Positions 1,100 to 27,841 of a DNA stretch of 27,841 bases are shown here, piece by piece (the stretch's first letter is position 1; the number at the start of each line of letters is the position of its first letter). Below the pieces are notes generated by a model that was not told the DNA's origin, did no database searches, and saw only the letters and a program-made list of their open reading frames with translations. The DNA comes from Candidatus Fermentibacteraceae bacterium (GTDB taxonomy: Bacteria; Fermentibacterota; Fermentibacteria; Fermentibacterales; JCC-6), in the NCBI GenBank assembly GCA_041686025.1, contig JAWLEP010000035.1, positions 1 to 27,841 on the forward strand. The letters are read 5' to 3'. Both the position numbers and the translations under genes were made by a program.

Positions 1100-4000
1100 C
1101 TAGAGCCTGCGGGCCAGTATCACCACCTCCACGGCTTCCCGGACCTCTCCGGAGGCGGGCCGGCAGCGCAGGAAGACGATGTACCTCCCCACCGGCATCC
1201 TGGCCCCGTTCTCATCGCTGCCGTCCCACTGGAGCGCCAGGCTGCTGCCGCACTCCATGCGCTCCGTCAGCGTCTTCACCACCCTTCCCTGTACGTTGTA
1301 GATCCGGGCTGTGACCGTGTTGCCGGAGGTTTCGGCGTTCATGGATATGTTCAGAACGTCATCGTGGCCGTCGCCGTCGGGGGAGAAGGGGCTGGGCCAC
1401 ACGGCCAGGAACGGGCCGCCCTGCTGTCCGGACGAGGCGCTGTTGGGCCCGCCAGGGGTGCCGCCCTCGGCGCATCCGGTCCAGTTGGATGCTTCCCAGC
1501 CGGGGGCCGGGGCCTCTATCCTCTCCAGGCTGCGGCCGGTGTCCCCGCCCCAGTCGTCTCCGTAGGGGACGCGGTCGATCACCTGGCCGGAGGCCAGGGA
1601 GAGACGCAGGTCGTCGGCCCAGCTCTGTCCCTGCTGGTTGGTGTTGTTGAGAGTGGGCCATGTCTGCGGCTGGATCACGGGAGCCTCCACATCGGGCCAG
1701 GCCTCCCAGAAGGCCGTTGAATCGGAGCAGAGCACAGCGTAGTCCCCGGGCTGCAGAAGGATCGACGCCTCGGTCACGGAGGTGGTGTCCCGGGAGTCGG
1801 AGAAGCGGACTTCCGCCAGATCTACCGGCCCCGTGCCGGGGCAGACGTGCAGTTCCACCCACTCGGGCCTTCCCGGAGCGGGGCTGTACATGATCTCGTT
1901 GATGACCAGGGAGTAGGGCCTGTTCCAGATGACGCGGGCTGTGTCATTGGCCGGGTTGGTGTCGGCCTGGCAATGGGACACCGCCAGCAGCAGCGCCGGC
2001 GCGTCTGCGGCCGTCCACTGAGCCGGTATCTGTATGCTGTCGCCGGGCGACATCGCGCCTGCGGTCCAGGAGAAGATCTCCTCGGAAGGCTCGGCCAGGG
2101 AGTCGCCGTCGGCGTCCTCGTACAGAGCCAGAACCAGATCTCCCTGCCCTATGGGCTCCGTTCCGGCGCTGGTGAGAAAGGAGGTGAGGGTGACCTGCGA
2201 CTCCGGGGCCCCCATGGGCGGGTCGGCGGTCAGGAGCGTCACCGCGGCATCCGGCCCGGTGTACACCTCGGGCGGCGGCCCGCCGGGGGTGGGCCCCTCC
2301 GAGGAGGAGAACCAGTTGTCCTCCCGGTCCGGGCCCTCGAGGTCGATGCGCTGTACGCTGCCGCCGGTTCCGGGATCGAAGGGAATGCCGTCCAGCCCGT
2401 CATCGTCACGCTCAAGGGGGTCGTCGTCCGGGACCGGCGTCCCGTAGGTGGACATAACGAAGTCGTTGGTGGTACCGCCCGGTCCGTAGAGGGTGATGGG
2501 GTCGCTGCCGGTGAGCCCGTTGCCCAGGGCGGCGTTGGTGACGGTAAGGACCAGGGTGCCCGGAGGAAGGTCATAGGGCTGTTCTCCGTCGGGGTAGTCC
2601 TTGTCCAGTATCAGGGCGAAGCAGCCTTCGGGGAGGTAGCTGCCGTAGGCGGCGTCGGGGTCCGATACGGAGCCGGGCTCCATGGCCACCAGGGAATCCA
2701 CGGCGTCTCCGTCGGTGAAGCGGCATCCGGTGAGGTCGAAGACCCCCGGGCCGGGATAGTACAGCTCGATCATCTCGTCGCAGGCCTGGTCCTCAGGGGT
2801 GCACACCACCTCGCTCACCACCACGTCCCCGCCATCGCCCACCACCACCCCGATCCTGCCGAGGTCGTTCGACCCGTCGGGGTCGTCGGGGTGCGACGAC
2901 AGGGCCGCCATGAGGTAGTTGCCCTCGGGGCGAGTCGCAACGGTCTGCACCGTCAGGGTGTCTCCCGGGGCCAAGGGCGGGAGGTCCACCTCCTCCAGAA
3001 CCTCCCCGGAGCCCGGAAGCGAGTCGTTGTCCTGGTCGTCGAAGAAGATGACCTTTCCCCCGGACACCTCTTCCAGACCCGCGTTCAGAGCCAGCGCAGA
3101 CAGGGTTAGGGGCTCGTAGGGATCGGGATTGGCCGGGGAGGCGTCCATGCTCACCACCGCCAGGTCACAGTCGTGCTGGGGGTAGGGCACCCAGCCCGGA
3201 GTGGCGCCGTATCCCGAGCTCTCCCAGGTCCACTCGGCATCCGGGAGCAGGGGCGAGATGCGCTGGACTCCGCAGCCGTCGCCGGGGTCGAATGGGATTC
3301 CGTCGGCGCCGTCGTCGTCGCAGCCCAGGGGGTCGTCGGACAGTATCGGCGTGCCGTAGGTGGACATCAGGCTGGAGAGCGATGAGTCGGCGTGGTGGTA
3401 GAGAAGGACCGGGTCGTTGGTGGTGAGGCCGTTGCCCAGGGTCTTGTCGTCGGTCGTCACCACTACGGTGGACTCCGGCAGCTGGTAGGGCTGCGTACCC
3501 TGGGGGTAGTCGCTGTCCAGGATGAGGCCGACCCTGCCCCCCGGGAGGGCGGGCAGGGCGAGGGCGTCGGGGTCTGTTATGCCCCCGCCCTCCCAGGCCT
3601 GCAGGACGTCCAGGGCGTCGCCGTCGGTGATGTGGCAGCCGGCCAGCAGCAGCGCCCCCGGACCCGGGTAGTAGACCTCTATCATCTCGTCGGTGGTCTC
3701 GTTCAGGGCGTTGGCGACCACCTCCGTGATCACCGCCGGGACGCCTCCCCCGACGGCCAGGGGCATCCTGTCGTAATCGTCTTCGGGGCAGCCGTCCTCG
3801 GGGACATCTGCCAGGGCGGAGGGGATGTACCAGCCGGTCTCCAGGGTGACCTGCACGCTGAAGGTGTCGGTCACTCCCGGCTGGAGGTCGGCCGCCGGCC
3901 AGGAGCCCAGGATCTCCGATTGCTGGGGGATGGAGTCTCCCCAGGCGTCTAGGAACAGGTATAGCTCCCCCGAGGAGGGCGGCACCGTGCCCCAGCAGAG

Positions 4001-4711
4001 GAACGCCGCATGGATGCTGAAGGGCTCTCCACCGGGAGGGTCGGGGGAATCGGTCCATATCCCCACGCATGACACGTTGACCGTATCCGGGGGCGGCTCG
4101 GTGGGGGAGCCCGGAGAGCCTCCAAAGGGGCCCCTGAACCACGATCCCTCCTGATCGGGCGCGGTGAGCGGGTACCTCTCCACCGTGTAACCTTCCCCCG
4201 GGTCGAAGGGTATGCTGTCCAGGCCGTCGTCGTCACGCTCCTCCCAGCTGTCCGAGGGAACCGGGGTACCGTAGGTGCTGACTGCGTTGCTGTCGGCGGT
4301 GCCCCCGGGATCGAACAGGGTCAGGGGATCGCTGGAGGCGGCCAGGCCGTTGCAGATGGCATGGTCGCCGGTGGTCATTATCAGGGTCCCATCCGCGATG
4401 TCGTATACGGGATCGTCCGGGTAGTCCAGCTCGAAGACAAGGCAGAAGCCCCCCGGAAGCAGCGTGTCTGTACCCGTTACCCCCTCCGGGTGCGGGAAGG
4501 TGCCGTGTGAGGACTCGTCCCAGGCCTCCAGGTAGTCCAGCGCGTCACCGTCGGTGAGTGACCATCCGTCAAGGGCCAGAGTGTCGGGGCCGGGGTTGTG
4601 TATCTCCACGAACTCGCCGGTAGTATCATCCAGGGGGTTGGACGCCACCTCGGTGATCACGGGCGGTGTCTGGGAAACGACAAGGACGGCAATCAGCGTT
4701 ACGGGTTCCAT
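1100..4711 (-). CDS. Secreted multi-lamin-tail-domain protein with CARDB-like spacers and C-terminal FlgD-Ig/sorting domain
   Basis: 1203-aa ORF with a short hydrophobic N-terminus. Four LTD-type starts (ITEVASNP..EFVEI, ITEVVANA..EMIEV, VSEVVCTP..EMIEL, INEIMYSP..EWVEL). CARDB-like segments ending in D.D.SND / DTNPAND. C-terminal PSPFSPDGDG..RIYNVQGRVVKTL..WDGSDENG..GRYIV. Confidence 0.85.
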   Translation of the reverse strand: MEPVTLIAVLVVSQTPPVITEVASNPLDDTTGEFVEIHNPGPDTLALDGWSLTDGDALDYLEAWDESSHGTFPHPEGVTGTDTLLPGGFCLVFELDYPDDPVYDIADGTLIMTTGDHAICNGLAASSDPLTLFDPGGTADSNAVSTYGTPVPSDSWEERDDDGLDSIPFDPGEGYTVERYPLTAPDQEGSWFRGPFGGSPGSPTEPPPDTVNVSCVGIWTDSPDPPGGEPFSIHAAFLCWGTVPPSSGELYLFLDAWGDSIPQQSEILGSWPAADLQPGVTDTFSVQVTLETGWYIPSALADVPEDGCPEDDYDRMPLAVGGGVPAVITEVVANALNETTDEMIEVYYPGPGALLLAGCHITDGDALDVLQAWEGGGITDPDALALPALPGGRVGLILDSDYPQGTQPYQLPESTVVVTTDDKTLGNGLTTNDPVLLYHHADSSLSSLMSTYGTPILSDDPLGCDDDGADGIPFDPGDGCGVQRISPLLPDAEWTWESSGYGATPGWVPYPQHDCDLAVVSMDASPANPDPYEPLTLSALALNAGLEEVSGGKVIFFDDQDNDSLPGSGEVLEEVDLPPLAPGDTLTVQTVATRPEGNYLMAALSSHPDDPDGSNDLGRIGVVVGDGGDVVVSEVVCTPEDQACDEMIELYYPGPGVFDLTGCRFTDGDAVDSLVAMEPGSVSDPDAAYGSYLPEGCFALILDKDYPDGEQPYDLPPGTLVLTVTNAALGNGLTGSDPITLYGPGGTTNDFVMSTYGTPVPDDDPLERDDDGLDGIPFDPGTGGSVQRIDLEGPDREDNWFSSSEGPTPGGPPPEVYTGPDAAVTLLTADPPMGAPESQVTLTSFLTSAGTEPIGQGDLVLALYEDADGDSLAEPSEEIFSWTAGAMSPGDSIQIPAQWTAADAPALLLAVSHCQADTNPANDTARVIWNRPYSLVINEIMYSPAPGRPEWVELHVCPGTGPVDLAEVRFSDSRDTTSVTEASILLQPGDYAVLCSDSTAFWEAWPDVEAPVIQPQTWPTLNNTNQQGQSWADDLRLSLASGQVIDRVPYGDDWGGDTGRSLERIEAPAPGWEASNWTGCAEGGTPGGPNSASSGQQGGPFLAVWPSPFSPDGDGHDDVLNISMNAETSGNTVTARIYNVQGRVVKTLTERMECGSSLALQWDGSDENGARMPVGRYIVFLRCRPASGEVREAVEVVILARRL

Positions 4712-12815: not shown

Positions 12816-13907
12816 ATGAACAAGCCCTTCAGAGCCATGGCGGCGGCTGCGGTGCTGGCGGCAGCCGTTCCGTCGGCTGCCACCAAGTACGCCGGAGAGT
12901 TCATGTACATTGGCGCAGGCGGAAGGGCGCTGGGCATGGGAGGGGCATACGCCTCCCTGGCGGCCGACGCCACCGCCGGCTACTGGAACCCGGCGGGGCT
13001 GGTGAGGATGGTCGGCTCCGAGGCCCAGCTCATGCACTCCGAGCGCTTCGGGGGCCTGGTCACCTACGACTACCTGGCCTACGGCCGCTCCGACGGAGAG
13101 ACCGGTCTGGGGGCAAGCCTGTTCCGGACGGACATGGGCGACGTTCCCAACACCACGGACATGGAGTTCTACGACACCGGCTCCGACGGAGTGTTCGGCG
13201 AGGACGGGACGGGCGAGCCCGGAGACGCCGGCGACGACGACTACGACCCGGACACCAACCCGGACGGAACCGAGGGCAACGGGGAGTGGGACCCGGGCGA
13301 GGAGATCATCTACGACGAGAGCAGGATAACCTATCAGAGCTGCGTGGACTGGGCCCTCTACCTCTCCTGGTCCCGCCACCTGACCGACCGGCTTACACTG
13401 GGCACCTCGGCCAAGGTGATCTCCAGGACCATCATGGACCACAGCGGCTGGGGCCTGGGCTTCGATGCCGGTGCCCAGATGAGGTTCTCAGACGCCTTCT
13501 CCATGGGCCTTTCCCTGCAGGACGTCTTCGGCACCTATCTCTTCTACGACACGGGGACCAGGGAGAGCGTCCTGCCCACGGCAAAGCTGGGAATGTCGGC
13601 GCAGTGGCCCATACAGAGGTTCGCCTCCGTCCTTACCTTCAGCATGGACGGGGACTTCCGCTTCGAGGGCCGCAAGGCCTCCGCCCAGTACCACATGGGA
13701 GAGGTGAGCCTGGACACCCACATGGGCTTCGAGCTGATGGTAAAGGACAGAGTGGGCCTGCGTCTGGGAGGATCGGAGGGCAGCCTGACCGCCGGCCTGG
13801 GCCTGAAGCTGGGGCTGATGGGCCGCCCGGTGAGCCTTGACTACGCATACCTGAGCCATGAGGAACTGGACAACACGCACAGGTTCTCCCTGGGCGTGGG
13901 CTTCTAG
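12816..13907 (+). CDS. PorV/PorQ-family outer-membrane beta-barrel protein
   Basis: Signal peptide, then KYAGEFMYIGAGGRALGMGGAY..LAADATAGYWNPAGL, G.GFDAG, DYAY and C-terminal HRFSLGVGF ending in Phe. Confidence 0.85.
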   Translation: MNKPFRAMAAAAVLAAAVPSAATKYAGEFMYIGAGGRALGMGGAYASLAADATAGYWNPAGLVRMVGSEAQLMHSERFGGLVTYDYLAYGRSDGETGLGASLFRTDMGDVPNTTDMEFYDTGSDGVFGEDGTGEPGDAGDDDYDPDTNPDGTEGNGEWDPGEEIIYDESRITYQSCVDWALYLSWSRHLTDRLTLGTSAKVISRTIMDHSGWGLGFDAGAQMRFSDAFSMGLSLQDVFGTYLFYDTGTRESVLPTAKLGMSAQWPIQRFASVLTFSMDGDFRFEGRKASAQYHMGEVSLDTHMGFELMVKDRVGLRLGGSEGSLTAGLGLKLGLMGRPVSLDYAYLSHEELDNTHRFSLGVGF

Positions 13908-19956: not shown

Positions 19957-21870
19957 ATGCACATTACCATGATGGTTCTGGTGCTGCTGATGGCCCCCCG
20001 GCCCGAGCAGTCCAACATCGCCTGGACCCGGCCGCTGAACCCGCCGGGGGCCTCCGCCCTCGAGCCTCCGCAGCACTCCTTCGACGTGCTCCACTACGAC
20101 CTCTGGCTGGACGTATATCCCGACGCCTCGCAGCTCACCTGCACCGCCACCCTTACCCTGACCCCCACCGAGGAGAACGTGGAGGAGATAGGCCTCAACC
20201 TGAGTTCCATGGCGGTGGACTCGGTCTGGGACACCTCCGGCCCGCTCTCATACAGCCAGCCCGGCGACTCCCTGATCGTGCAGCTGGCCGGGCCCGCCGG
20301 TACGGGGGATACGCTGGAGGTCTCCATCTCCTACGGGGGCGAGCCCTGGAACGAGGGAACCGGCGGCTTCGGCGGCTTCTGGTTCCGCCCCAGCATCCCC
20401 GTGGCCTTTCAGATGGGAGTGGGCATCTACACCGACCCGCCCTCGGTGGGCCGGGCCATGTTCCCCTGCTGGGACCATCCCTCCGACAAGGCCACCTTCG
20501 AGTTCCACGTCACCTGCCCGGACACCCTCTACGCCGTGGCCAACGGAGACCTCTTGAGGGTTACTTCCGAAGGCGGCCGGGCCCTCTACGAATGGAACCT
20601 GGACCAGCCCATGAGCACCTACCTGGCTGCGGTGTCGGTAGGTGACTACACGGTCCTCACCGACTCCACCTACGACTGGATCAAGTACTACGTCTACGAA
20701 TGGGACGTGGAGGACGCCCTGGGGAGCTTCGCCAACGTGGACCTGATCATGGACCAGCTCCAGAGCCGCTACGGGCCCTACCCTTGGGACTGCAAGTTCT
20801 CCTACGTGCAGACACCCAAGGGGGACATGGAGCATCTTAGCCAGGTGTACCACCTGGCCATGCTGATCAACGGGAGCACCACCTACGACTGGCTCCTGGC
20901 CCACGAGCTGGGCCACCAGTGGTGGGGGAACTGCGTCACCGAGAGCCAGTGGTCGGACGTATGGCTCTCCGAGGGCTTCGCCACCTACACCGAAGCCGTC
21001 TGGCAGGAGCACTACGGCCAGGAGGAGTACGACGACTACATGGTGAACCAGATCATGATCCCCTACCTGCAGAGCGGCGAGACGTTTCCGCTGGCCGGAC
21101 CCTCCACCCCGTCGGAGTACTGGAGCTACACCACCTACGAGAAGGGGGCCAGCGTCCTGCACATGCTCCGTTACGTGGTGGGAGACGGCGAATTCTTCGC
21201 CGCGCTGGACGAGTACTTCGACCACCATTCCTACGGCCTGGCCACCACCGACGACCTCCGCGACCACTTCGAGAACGTTACCGGGGACGACATGGACTGG
21301 TTCTTCGACACCTGGGTGTGGGGAGAGGGCTACCCGCTCTACGAGATGGACTACGACTGGTCCCAGTCCGGGTCGGACTGGGAGCTGACGGTGGACGTCA
21401 GCCAGGTTCAGACCACCCCCACCATATTCTCCATGCCCCTGGAGTTCCTGGTGGAGGGAGCCTCCCAGGACACGGTGGTGGTGATGTGGAATGATCAACA
21501 GTACGACACCGAGACATTCCTGCTGCCCTTCGAGCCGCAGTCGGTAAGCTTCGACCCCTACCACCACATCCTCTCCACCCATCTCACGGGCGTGGATGAC
21601 GACCCCGTTCCCCCGCCGGGAGGCGCCGGCACCATGATGGCCCGTCCCAACCCGGCATCCGTCTCCACCGTCATCGTCTGGGACGGGATGGAGGAAAGGA
21701 ACGGAGAAGCGAGGCTCTTCGACCTGGCAGGAAGATCTGTGCGGCGGGCCTCCATGGAGGCGGGAACGGCAACCCTGGACCTGAGGGGACTTCCCTCGGG
21801 GACCTACTTCGTGGAGGCCAGGGCGGCGGGAGGTCTGCGGCAGGTCTGCAGGCTGGTGGTGGTGGACTAG
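19957..21870 (+). CDS. Secreted M1 family aminopeptidase with C-terminal T9SS-type sorting domain
   Basis: FDVLHYDL, FPCWDHPSDKAT, PMSTYL, GDMEH, HELGHQWWG..WLSEGFATY and YEKGASVLHMLR. C-terminal PNPAS...LFDLAGRSV...LPSGTYFV...RLVVVD. Confidence 0.92.
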   Translation: MHITMMVLVLLMAPRPEQSNIAWTRPLNPPGASALEPPQHSFDVLHYDLWLDVYPDASQLTCTATLTLTPTEENVEEIGLNLSSMAVDSVWDTSGPLSYSQPGDSLIVQLAGPAGTGDTLEVSISYGGEPWNEGTGGFGGFWFRPSIPVAFQMGVGIYTDPPSVGRAMFPCWDHPSDKATFEFHVTCPDTLYAVANGDLLRVTSEGGRALYEWNLDQPMSTYLAAVSVGDYTVLTDSTYDWIKYYVYEWDVEDALGSFANVDLIMDQLQSRYGPYPWDCKFSYVQTPKGDMEHLSQVYHLAMLINGSTTYDWLLAHELGHQWWGNCVTESQWSDVWLSEGFATYTEAVWQEHYGQEEYDDYMVNQIMIPYLQSGETFPLAGPSTPSEYWSYTTYEKGASVLHMLRYVVGDGEFFAALDEYFDHHSYGLATTDDLRDHFENVTGDDMDWFFDTWVWGEGYPLYEMDYDWSQSGSDWELTVDVSQVQTTPTIFSMPLEFLVEGASQDTVVVMWNDQQYDTETFLLPFEPQSVSFDPYHHILSTHLTGVDDDPVPPPGGAGTMMARPNPASVSTVIVWDGMEERNGEARLFDLAGRSVRRASMEAGTATLDLRGLPSGTYFVEARAAGGLRQVCRLVVVD

Positions 21871-24691: not shown

Positions 24692-25762
24692 TCATGCGTG
24701 ACCGTCGGGGGGCTCGATTCCCCTCTCGGCGGCTTTCCTGCGCATCTCGCGGTCGGTCCTGGCCACGGCCCGGCTCCACTGCAGGGCCACGGGCAGCTTC
24801 AGGCTGTAGAGGAAGTTGTACTCGGTGTAGCAGGAGGCGGTGCAGGCCTGGCAGGGCAGCTCGGAGGCGGCCCGGAAGGCCTGTTCGAATCCCACATCCA
24901 ATGCATTCTTCGCCTGGGGGTAGAGGCCGATCAGCAGCGAGCAGGGGTAGACCCTGCCGTCCACGTCGATGTTGCAGTACATCCTCCCCGCCCGGCAGGA
25001 GACCCCATGGAACCGCCGACCCAGACGGGTACTCGAGAAGTCGGGCCATTCCGCCAGGCTCCCGAGGTAGTGGGTGGAGTTGGCGATGGGTGCCCCGGCC
25101 CGCTTCATCTCCAGCAGCCTCCCCAGAGCCTCCCCGTACTCCTCCCGGGTGGGCATCAGCCCGGAGGTGTCGCCCCCCAGCTTCTCGTTGTGGTGGAGGG
25201 TCTGGAAGGTGGTGAGGAAACCGTATCGCTCCGCGGTCTCCATGATGTAATCGAGGTGGTTTATGTTGTTGCGGGTGAGGACGGTGATGGTCCACATCCG
25301 CGTCCTCCCCGAGGCCACCTCCATGGCGGCGGTCACCTTGTCGAAGCTCCCCGTCTCCCGGTTGGCGTCATGGGCCTCCCGGGGCCCGTCGAAGGCCAGC
25401 ACCAGATGGTCTATGTTGTCGAGTATCTCCCTCCTGGCGGGGATCAGGTAGCCGTTGCTGTCCACGCTGACGTAGATCCCCAGCGACCTGGCGTAGGCGC
25501 ACAGCTCCACTATGTCCCGCCGCATGAGGGGCTCGCCGCCCCAGACCCCCAGCCTCTGGGTGCCGGCATCCCTCATCTGGGAGAACAGGTCCTTCCACTG
25601 CTCCGTGGACAGGTCCGGCCTGTTCTGCTCGGGAATCTGGCAGTAGGTGCAGCGGCTGGGGCAGTGGTCGGTGACGCTGGCCATGACGTTCACCGGCCTC
25701 CTTCGGCCCAGCAGCCCCAGCACGGCCGAGATTCCCATTCTCATCTGCCCGAGGAGGTTCAT
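24692..25762 (-). CDS. Radical SAM enzyme with SPASM/twitch domain
   Basis: CPSRCTYC (CxxxCxxC), WGGEPLMR, SNG, CRAGRMYCNIDVDGRVYPC and CQACTASC. Confidence 0.92.
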   Translation of the reverse strand: MNLLGQMRMGISAVLGLLGRRRPVNVMASVTDHCPSRCTYCQIPEQNRPDLSTEQWKDLFSQMRDAGTQRLGVWGGEPLMRRDIVELCAYARSLGIYVSVDSNGYLIPARREILDNIDHLVLAFDGPREAHDANRETGSFDKVTAAMEVASGRTRMWTITVLTRNNINHLDYIMETAERYGFLTTFQTLHHNEKLGGDTSGLMPTREEYGEALGRLLEMKRAGAPIANSTHYLGSLAEWPDFSSTRLGRRFHGVSCRAGRMYCNIDVDGRVYPCSLLIGLYPQAKNALDVGFEQAFRAASELPCQACTASCYTEYNFLYSLKLPVALQWSRAVARTDREMRRKAAERGIEPPDGHA

Positions 25763-26787
25763 GATCCTTCACCGCCTTCCGGCATGCCGGCCCACTGCGG
25801 TCCGTAGGGGCAGGACTCGATCCAGCGGGCGGCCTGCCTGTCCTGGCCGGTAAGGCGGTAGGCCAGACGGTACCACATCTTGGCCGCGCGCTTGAGGGGC
25901 CCCATAAGGGGCCCGTCCGAGCCCGGACAGTCCCGGTTTCCGCGGAGCCTGCCCTCCACCTGCGCCACGAAGTTGGGGCGGGGGGGGGCGAAGTCGAAAC
26001 TGGGGACCTTCGAGAGGGGGGGCAGCGCCTTTTCCTCCCAGTCCCCGTTCCCGTCAACCCGTCCCCTGGCCTTGCGCACGGTCTCTATGTCGTCGGGGTC
26101 GAACCCCATCAGTCGGGCCAGGGACTCGTCCATGGCCACCCTGTCGGTGGACGCCGCCACGAAGTCCGTCTGCCTGGGAGTTCCCGGCTTGGGCCCGTTT
26201 CCCTCCAGGGATACAGTTCCGTCCGCCAGTGTGAGAACCACTGGAATCCTCTCGTTCACCGCCGTCAGATAGTCGGCCAGGCGGCAGTGGTAGTTGTGGC
26301 GGTTGTCGTCGAGGCATCCGTAGAGGTTCTTCAGGGCGGCGGATATGGTGGTGCGGTAGTGGGTCTTGACCACGGGCACCGACACCACCGGCATCCTGGT
26401 GCAGATCTCGGGAATGGAGAACTCCAGCTCCCCGGCCCTGACGGGCACCCATTCGTGCTCGGAGAAGTTGTGCCACAGAAGGCCCCGCCTCTCGGCCGCC
26501 TGCCGCATCCCGGTGACCTCGAAGGCCCGGGTGGCATTCACAAGCACCTGGCTGGACTCCCCCAGCCAGATCCTGCCCACGTGACCCTCCAGGTAGGAGG
26601 CCACCGCCTCCACCACCCAGGGGGAGGTATCCACCCCGGGACGGACGAAGTCCCAGGTGAGGTTTATCTTCAGCAGCACATCCATACCGGCGGGTAGAAG
26701 GGTCCTGGCCTCGACTGCGTCGAGGACCTTGTGCACGGCCCGGGATACCCCCTCGCGGGTGGATGCGTAGTAGACGTTGCTGTCCAC
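25759..26787 (-). CDS. DUF362 domain protein
   Basis: VLLKINL, T.P.VV.AV, GES, VPVVKTH, ALKNLYG, DG...EGNGP and DRVAMD...RLMGFDP. Probable GTG start at 26787 behind a GGGAGG RBS, with an ATGA overlap into the radical SAM gene. Confidence 0.88.
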   Translation of the reverse strand: MDSNVYYASTREGVSRAVHKVLDAVEARTLLPAGMDVLLKINLTWDFVRPGVDTSPWVVEAVASYLEGHVGRIWLGESSQVLVNATRAFEVTGMRQAAERRGLLWHNFSEHEWVPVRAGELEFSIPEICTRMPVVSVPVVKTHYRTTISAALKNLYGCLDDNRHNYHCRLADYLTAVNERIPVVLTLADGTVSLEGNGPKPGTPRQTDFVAASTDRVAMDESLARLMGFDPDDIETVRKARGRVDGNGDWEEKALPPLSKVPSFDFAPPRPNFVAQVEGRLRGNRDCPGSDGPLMGPLKRAAKMWYRLAYRLTGQDRQAARWIESCPYGPQWAGMPEGGEGS

Positions 26788-26807
26788 AGCCCTCCCTTCA
26801 ACCGGGT

Positions 26808-26816
26808 AATATAGCA
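26808..26816 (-). promoter_or_regulatory. Putative extended -10 promoter (TGCTATATT) for the DUF362 operon
   Basis: TGnTATATT on the minus strand about 20 nt upstream of the GTG at 26787, within the short divergent intergenic region. Confidence 0.4.
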
Positions 26817-26882
26817 TTGACCGCCTGAGGTCACAGTCCGTATTAGTTACCTGCATGGTATGGTTTTCACGAAAGGGGGAAC

Positions 26883-27841
26883 ATGAGTCTGAGGATTATG
26901 GCCGTAATGGCGGCAGTGGCTGCCCTGGCCTATGCCACGCCGCAGTTCCAGAGTCCCACCTGGATGTACTCGGGAGGGGCCCGGATAGACGTGGGCTACT
27001 ACGCCGCTCCCTGCGTGACGGACTGGGACGGGGACGGCAACAAGGATCTGCTTCTGGGCCAGTTCACCAGCGGCAAGATACGGTTTTACGCCAACGACGA
27101 CGGCAACGACTCCCCGGTATTCACCGGCTACGACTTCCTGCAGGCCGACGGTTCGGACATCTCCGTCCCTGCCGGTTGATGCACCGGCGCGACGAATCCA
27201 CAGGCTGTGGATTGGAACGATGACGGACTCGAGGATCTAATAGTCGGCGACCGCAACGGCTACATGCACTACTTCCGCCGCACGGGCAGCGGCGTGAACG
27301 ACCTCACCGACGAGGGATATGTCGAATCCGGTGGCTCGGCAATCGATGTGGGCTCCAACGCGGCACCCGCCTGCGTCTACGTCCACGCGGACGGAAGCCG
27401 GGAGAGGCTGGACTGGAACGAGGACGGCCTCTGCGACATGCTGGTGGGGCTGCAGGGCAGCTACCCCTCGGGCAGCAACCTGCGCATCTACCTCAATGAG
27501 GGCAGCAACGCCAATCCCGTCTTCAACGGGTACGAGAACATCCCCGGCGACTACGGCTACAGGTTCTGCCCGCAGGTGGCGGACCTCAACGGAGACGGCA
27601 AGAAGGACGTCGTGGCCGGCAACAACGACGCCAACATCGTCTACTACGAGAACGTGGGGACGAACGCTTCCCCGCAGTTCGGCACGGGGGTGAACCTCCA
27701 GGCCGGAGGCTCGACCATCGACCTGTACGCCGGGACGAGGCTGTGGGTGGACGACTGGAACTCCGACGGCCTGCTGGACCTGCTGGTGAGCGACTACGAC
27801 GGCTACGTCTACGTCTACCTGCAGGCCGAAGAGGGTATCGC
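26883..27841 (+). CDS. Secreted FG-GAP/VCBS-repeat beta-propeller protein with in-frame TGA (candidate selenoprotein, U99-C100), 3'-partial
   Basis: RBS, ATG and signal peptide, then repeat 1 (DWDGDGNKDLLLG). TGA at 27177-27179. The same frame stays open for 220 more codons to the window end, giving four more repeats: DWNDDGLEDLIVG, DWNEDGLCDMLVG, DLNGDGKKDVVAG and DWNSDGLLDLLVS. Confidence 0.8.
27195..27213 (+). promoter_or_regulatory. Candidate bacterial SECIS element
   Basis: AATCCACA-GGC-TGTGGATT forms a perfect 8-bp stem with a G-initial apical loop, 23 nt 3' of the in-frame TGA. Confidence 0.65.

Follow-up and report, generated by a model that had tools for sequence, protein, structure and literature searches.

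A predicted selenoprotein family of exported five-bladed beta-propellers with a vicinal Sec-Cys pair

The TGA at position 27177 of a 27,841-nucleotide contig from a Candidatus Fermentibacteraceae bacterium (contig C35; the whole contig is the window analysed here) very probably codes for selenocysteine (Sec, U). Comparison of relatives makes it close to certain that UGA is recoded at this site through a SECIS element in Sec-competent genomes, and we consider it very likely that three predictions hold jointly: Sec recoding, an exported five-bladed propeller, and a U-C pair carried on an inserted loop. Judged from sequence comparison, the selenoprotein family is real and missing from the catalogues, and its fold is unlisted for selenoproteins; the bacterial selenoproteome would gain with it a new fold as well as a new cellular location. 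Members are common: in the order Fermentibacterales 31 of 35 genomes have matches, and TGA copies occur in at least 56 of 251 Planctomycetota genomes. It would offer a testable case for selenium chemistry outside the cytoplasm, and a natural Sec/Cys/Gly series with which to ask what selenium adds.

The interrupted reading frame and its hairpin

The frame starts at ATG 26883 and runs for 98 codons to TGA 27177-27179 (codon 99); a Cys codon follows, and the frame then stays open for 220 codons up to the contig end, as the first-pass annotation of the window had read it. The window being the entire contig of a 2.7 Mb genome (95% complete, 67% G+C), the read-through gene is cut at the contig end. 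Full-length relatives in the order are mostly 385-430 aa long, and a database fragment that is 97% identical (P0001) extends about 96 aa further. The features are as follows:

26874..26879, + strand: purine-rich run resembling a ribosome-binding site, 3 bases upstream of the ATG (from the sequence; putative function)
26883..27841, + strand: read-through protein gene, 319 codons present, cut by the contig end
26883..26936, + strand: N-terminus resembling a signal peptide, about residues 1-18, with an A-x-A end (from the sequence; helix 2-15 in the model)
27021..27047, + strand: Asp-rich A-B loop of blade 1, D47-D55, putative Ca2+ site by analogy with propellers described in PMC8023676
27177..27179, + strand: in-frame UGA, codon 99, predicted selenocysteine from the comparison of relatives
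27180..27182, + strand: Cys100, partner of U99; the loop joining strand D of blade 1 to strand A of blade 2 is extended by 4-5 inserted residues, which carry the pair
27195..27213, + strand: SECIS-type hairpin with a 7-bp stem and an AGGCU loop that begins 22 nt past the UGA
27210..27236, + strand: Asp-rich loop of blade 2, D110-D118 (alignment of repeats)
27411..27437, + strand: Asp-rich loop of blade 3, D177-D185 (alignment of repeats)
27582..27608, + strand: Asp-rich loop of blade 4, D234-D242 (alignment of repeats)
27753..27779, + strand: Asp-rich loop of blade 5, D291-D299 (alignment of repeats)
27825..27841, + strand: start of the linker toward an Ig-like, T9SS-type C-terminal tail, which is cut off here (on the basis of P0001)

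Database records reflect the interruption. Gene callers use GTG 27207 as a fragment start, 76 of 120 database hits begin at or after residue 105, and 112 of 120 N-terminal fragments end at the UGA column, so that one gene is routinely annotated as two, with the signal peptide on one protein and the sorting tail on another. The first-pass annotation was mistaken in finding no ATG before the end of repeat 2: an in-frame ATG lies at codon 128, within that repeat. It was right that the genetic code is not changed genome-wide. TGA terminates 11 of 19 other window ORFs chosen by eye (a twentieth, listed on the wrong strand, being left out), and tRNA-Trp is present with a CCA anticodon only, which rules out such a recoding; tRNA-Sec is the only UCA-anticodon tRNA found in the genome.

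Codon 27177 is bridged, with its letter unchanged, by contigs from two DNA runs and one RNA-library run, and the sequencing error that had been envisaged is thereby refuted. RNA-library contigs cover the gene, one of them crossing the UGA; such contigs are silent on level, strand and transcription. The strain sampled in run X6 shows 26 differences, none of them in the TGA, the Cys codon or the hairpin; 22 are listed in the gene, of which 18 are synonymous. Against two relatives, dN/dS is 0.08-0.19 before the TGA and 0.115 and 0.13 after it. By this measure the 3' part of the gene is under purifying selection, contrary to the pseudogene decay against which the first reading had warned.

The hairpin at 27195-27213 had been overlooked. 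It fits the published constraints for a bSECIS (stem of 4-16 bp, loop of 3-9 nt, G in one of the first two loop places, 16-37 nt from the UGA, MFE of at most -7.5; PMC13188914), with a folding energy of -15.5 kcal/mol, and the selD gene of the same genome has an identical AGGCU loop 21 nt after its own UGA. Folding of the single sequence gives a modest z-score of -2.07, nine of 200 shuffles being equally good. The remaining blades of each gene served as control: with four genes left unparsed, the five core pairs are found at 107 of 114 blade-2 positions versus 6 of 410 positions elsewhere in those genes, and at 104 of 110 versus 6 of 144 when matched for the encoded peptide (P-x-x-[VA]-D). The second pair covaries (A-U in 88 cases, G-C in 16), rare codons are forced by the hairpin (CCA in 86 of 110), and none of the six non-TGA homologues examined keeps the stem intact. 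Within the genome the strict hairpin occurs only at the two paralogues described here, and a genome-wide scan for UGA plus hairpin returned 86 loose matches and no additional convincing gene. Rfam has no match at the hairpin.

The genome possesses the complete Sec machinery for which a search had been proposed. selA adjoins selB on contig C17, while selD, itself carrying a UxxK TGA, and tRNA-Sec (71.3 bits, cut-off 47) are on contig C36; selA is present in all 35 genomes of the order. By eye, the eighth and last pair of the acceptor stem of this tRNA-Sec (C36:8234-8330) looks like a G-A mismatch. Conserved TGA, machinery and SECIS-type hairpin together support the selenoprotein reading that the first-pass annotation had put forward.

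Conservation of the UGA and the residues that replace it

A single genome of the order can have as many as 10 matches. One TGA is present in 79 of the 80 best (E <= 4e-32). The genome itself has a second copy, at C39:16300-17502 (400 codons, 39% protein identity), with U-C-C at the site and an identical hairpin. As the TGA is found both in this divergent paralogue and in nearly all best matches among relatives, it is not there by chance. We read the DNA of 58 distinct genes of the order, and all have TGA at the common column: 51 encode U-C, five C-U, one U-x-x-C, and one U without a nearby Cys. Cys is thus adjacent to U in 56 of these 58 genes, and in 59 of 60 Planctomycetota genes.

The latter come from a sample of 251 Planctomycetota genomes (G041-G293), of which 65 match the family profile (E <= 1e-40, seven candidates scored per genome). 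We fetched 70 of the 86 matches; 60 of the 70 have TGA at the site, 59 of them as U-C. Every one of the 56 genomes that hold a TGA copy also has selA, a gene present in 187 of the whole sample of 251; the five genomes that match the family but lack selA hold no TGA copy. Since the genomes are kin and not independent, this co-occurrence test overstates the association. For five of the nine 'no-TGA' genomes the match is to more distant subfamilies. A selA share of 187 in 251 is in itself high for Planctomycetota, a phylum with few described selenoproteins.

Searching metagenome DNA for the pattern (UGA-Cys plus hairpin) gave 119 distinct matches listed, of which at least 107 pass the family filter; two further ones, among the matches listed, are members on inspection. 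At four of the 107 loci (L201, L203, L227, L307) the frame closes 49-76 codons past the UGA, by frameshift, decay or assembly error. The names of truncated protein fragments add WOR-3, at the protein level only. Plasmids gave no match to the family pattern, and viral contigs three distinct pattern matches, none of them in the family. A Hydrogenedentota-centred sample gave weak matches in seven of 81 genomes, none with a stop, and two very small phyla gave none (0 of 2 and 0 of 1 genomes).

The proposed check for TGA or Cys at the column in homologues came out in favour, with one caveat: Cys-Cys forms do exist, but Gly-Cys outnumbers every other non-Sec state. In 44 full-length database homologues the pair reads Gly-Cys 31 times and Cys-Cys twice, two have another residue followed by Cys, and nine have no Cys. 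The column was found with TGA, Cys or Gly and not with Trp, the residue that had been named as contrary evidence. Cys occupies the Sec position in L098, L108, P0105 and P0114. In a tree of 165 sequences, built with the motif columns removed and without five distant loci and three proteins that aligned poorly, four Cys-Cys forms nest singly within U-C clades, whereas Gly-Cys makes up two clades. Repeated change from Sec to Cys is typical selenoprotein behaviour; large Gly-Cys clades are atypical, and imply that the U-C pair is dispensable in some branches. P0007, P0008-P0010 and L058 are members from the order that have an intact frame but lost the UGA; four of them lost the Cys as well (E-T, E-F or A-W at the pair), and one keeps D-C with the hairpin lost. 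P0007 is 84% identical to a TGA member, and there, as in P0008-P0010, both residues of the pair are gone from an intact frame.

Two other accounts of the interrupted frame were considered. The UGA could be read as Cys, Gly or Trp, by a non-canonical tRNA or by leakage, or it could be a true stop between two polypeptides that together form one propeller. Gly being the commonest residue in non-TGA homologues would fit the former, and the GTG start at 27207 and the many N-terminal fragments terminating at the column would fit the latter. However, the sole tRNA found with a UCA anticodon is tRNA-Sec, co-occurrence with selA is strict, and the hairpin, which matches the selD SECIS, includes GTG 27207 in its 3' arm. 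Moreover, the downstream frame has no signal peptide but leads to a sorting tail that requires prior export, and the stop at the column is TGA in all 58 + 60 genes, never TAA or TAG. We hold this account to be very improbable. As for a sequencing error or a fresh pseudogene, the gene is seen on a single contig cut at its end, and four of the 107 metagenome loci close early; but the TGA recurs in independent runs and is conserved in two phyla, and dN/dS is about 0.1 on either side. The independent runs and the dN/dS values rule this explanation out, and we give it practically no weight.

Propeller fold, sorting tail and fusions

The protein has five Asp-rich FG-GAP/VCBS repeats, each blade with a DxDxDG-type loop, and matches Pfam FG-GAP_3; one repeat precedes the TGA and four follow it, in line with the first reading. 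An AlphaFold model from 46 sequences has five blades (pLDDT 94.8, pTM 0.91), and the tail comes straight after the five repeats. Five-bladed propellers come out on top in a wide structural alignment (Z 18.2, rmsd 3.2, 247 residues aligned, 10% identity), and in Foldseek seven-bladed FG-GAP proteins reach no more than TM 0.45; such a ranking identifies the fold, not the function. A repeat family known from solved structures with seven blades would apparently gain a five-bladed member here.

According to the model, the U-C pair would lie on a pocket-side loop inserted at one blade, a position read from secondary structure: the loop bearing U99-C100, from blade 1 strand D to blade 2 strand A, exceeds its counterpart in blades 1 and 5 by 4-5 residues. 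Apart from the repeat scaffold and the peptide encoded by the hairpin, the two phyla have no conserved site in common other than U-C. No acidic pocket residue outside the repeat loops, such as the catalytic carboxylates in the central pocket of GH43/GH32-type glycosidases, is conserved across both. An Arg-lined anion site (R124, R227, R286) was rejected as a family mechanism, being conserved in the order and not in Planctomycetota. In blade 3, inserted residues separate strand A from the Asp loop (about 27375-27410 of the window), a feature that only the closest relatives, L021 and L051, share.

Members from the order have an Ig-like tail, in some of them with a match to a T9SS type A sorting domain, so that the suspected C-terminal sorting domain seems to hold in relatives. 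TIGR04183 scores above its cut-off in L027 and P0007, just below it in L075, and does not match L021; PF18962 is found on many database fragments of the family. The window contains a PorV/PorQ-family gene, above cut-off, at 12816-13907 (+), and the genome has 20 C25 matches. A PorP search gave no match anywhere, controls included. Elsewhere in the window are a large exported protein with a FlgD-like end (1100-4711, - strand) and an M1 peptidase with a T9SS-type tail (19957-21870, + strand); the genome has many similar tails, apparently a T9SS-like secretome.

Three homologues (L103, L105, L197) have a C-terminal fusion to DsbD_N, in which a C-x4-C pair is kept. They are three of about 170 TGA loci, many of which are cut short, and a single-sequence model of a fused member reaches a pLDDT of only 42. 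The present genome, at 95% completeness, has no DsbD_N match, only a DsbD_TM/CcdA-like gene.

No conserved gene neighbourhood beyond local synteny was found in 252 flanking frames (76 + 81 + 95 scanned out of 76, 94 and 105 listed, with frames of paralogues and some short loci excluded). Upstream of the gene, divergent DUF362 and radical SAM genes occupy 24692-26856 (-); DUF362 also adjoins L021, L026, L028, L030 and L031, which we read as local synteny.

Possible roles of the U-C pair and relation to known systems

In the mechanism that we propose, SelB bound to the hairpin 22 nt downstream would in all likelihood bring Sec-tRNA to UGA 99 and so yield a protein of about 415 aa, with the 98-aa termination product expected as a by-product. 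The protein would be exported by its signal peptide and, as the model and homology suggest, fold into a five-bladed FG-GAP/VCBS propeller whose Asp-rich loops probably bind Ca2+. Given the T9SS-type tail in this lineage, it would probably end up at the cell surface. The U99-C100 loop would lie on the face where related propellers take ligands, the other pocket residues varying by clade. Our best guess, a tentative one, is that U-C cycles between selenolate/thiol and a vicinal selenenylsulfide as a redox centre. The substrate would be extracytoplasmic (a disulfide, a peroxide or an oxidised surface protein) and chosen by the variable pocket, and the pair would be re-reduced by a DsbD/CcdA route. 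We lean to a redox role because it is the pocket that varies and not the chemistry, because the U/C order flips or opens to U-x-x-C, and because of the three DsbD_N fusions. The guess is weakened by the absence of DsbD_N here, by the Gly-Cys clades that do without the pair, and by the distance of a surface-secreted copy from periplasmic reductant. In its widest form the proposal is that these are the first beta-propeller selenoenzymes: a large family, rich in paralogues, of exported five-bladed VCBS proteins with extracytoplasmic vicinal Sec-Cys redox activity, shown at the surface by a T9SS-like route in Fermentibacterota, present also in Planctomycetota and WOR-3, and part of the reason why the Sec machinery is kept. 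This whole is a little less likely than not.

With Sec inserted, the pair could serve otherwise. U-C might form a stable oxidised eight-membered ring, a platform for a ligand such as a sugar ring in a surface lectin or glycan-binding propeller, selenium easing formation of the strained ring in anoxic, reducing habitats. Lectins of the PVL/tachylectin type build their sugar pocket from a GW motif in loop D-A'. U-C occupies that loop in one blade only, and the residue ahead of the pair is usually aromatic (Trp before U at 50 of the 107 metagenome loci listed, Tyr-Gly in many members from the order). One 1,5-alpha-L-arabinanase is a five-bladed GH43 enzyme. A vicinal disulfide is described in it (PMC8960804) and vicinal disulfides also in PQQ dehydrogenases (PMC13384848), and the D-A' loop forms the sugar pocket in tachylectin-2 and PVL according to PMC8023676. 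The T9SS-type tails, the multiplicity of copies per genome and the variable pockets would also suit a binding platform. On the other hand, selenoproteins of known function are mostly catalytic in the account of PMC13188914, the U-x-x-C, C-U and U-only variants alter the ring geometry, and neither the DsbD_N fusions nor the absence of a carbohydrate-gene neighbourhood would be expected; we consider a ring platform unlikely. Binding of a soft metal or metalloid (Hg, Cu, Ag, As) by U-C, in an extracellular scavenger or carrier, would be in keeping with the metal-related selenoproteins with C-U motifs in Table 1 of PMC13188914 (SaoL, HgcA, MbdU) and with MerR-type neighbours at three related loci, all of one genus, and seems to us quite improbable. 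A redox centre stays our preferred role for the pair.

The 119 families in Table 1 of PMC13188914 (2026), most of whose entries are thioredoxin-like or metabolic enzymes, contain no FG-GAP, VCBS or propeller protein, in line with the initial impression of an uncharacterised selenoprotein class. Term searches of BSepDB (PMC13326102) and deep-Sep (PMC12013277) returned no such family, the selenoprotein models of NCBIfam (June 2026) do not match the gene, and our literature search found the family described nowhere, supplements and subscription journals outside its coverage being places where it may be mentioned. Like other SelB/SECIS genes, the family has an in-frame UGA, a hairpin in frame 16-37 nt downstream with a loop G, selABCD in the genome, and Cys homologues; unlike them, Gly replaces Sec more often than Cys does.

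Adjacent Se/S or Cys-Cys pairs able to form an eight-membered ring are found in SaoL, HgcA, KCU-star, PQQ alcohol dehydrogenases and RexT, in unrelated folds or pathways, whereas the pair described here is mostly U-C and sits in an exported five-bladed propeller. Mammalian thioredoxin reductase also has a vicinal Cys-Sec centre. The five-bladed GH43, GH32, GH62 and glutaminyl cyclase proteins are alike in fold (Z 15-18) but only 5-14% identical, a shared fold that demonstrates no function. Asp-rich A-B loops, a signal peptide and Ig-like partners are shared with VCBS/FG-GAP propellers (integrin alpha, PVL, CRTAC1, AUDH; PMC8023676), and there are weak sequence matches to integrin alpha, UmbA4 and CRTAC1; the solved VCBS/integrin members named in PMC8023676 have seven blades and no Sec, versus five blades in our model.

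The closest precedent is in Table S9 of Kim et al. 2016 (PMC4807772), with four Sec candidates labelled 'ASPIC UnbV; FG-Gap', Gly in the closest hit and a SECIS for three of the four; they are absent from the selenoprotein section of that paper. They are likewise Planctomycetota FG-GAP genes split at a UGA, but carry ASPIC/UnbV (PF07593), which we found in none of 16 family sequences and none of 29 + 8 tails. UGA-containing ASPIC/UnbV genes were recovered at five of 29 Planctomycetota loci (L150, L159, L163, L167, L173). Because their UGA comes after five to six repeats and without an adjacent Cys, we set them apart as what is probably a sister family using another site, likely the family of the 2016 candidates if, as we infer, the sites match. 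In these five genes the UGA is read at D-x-U, and a similar hairpin accompanies it.
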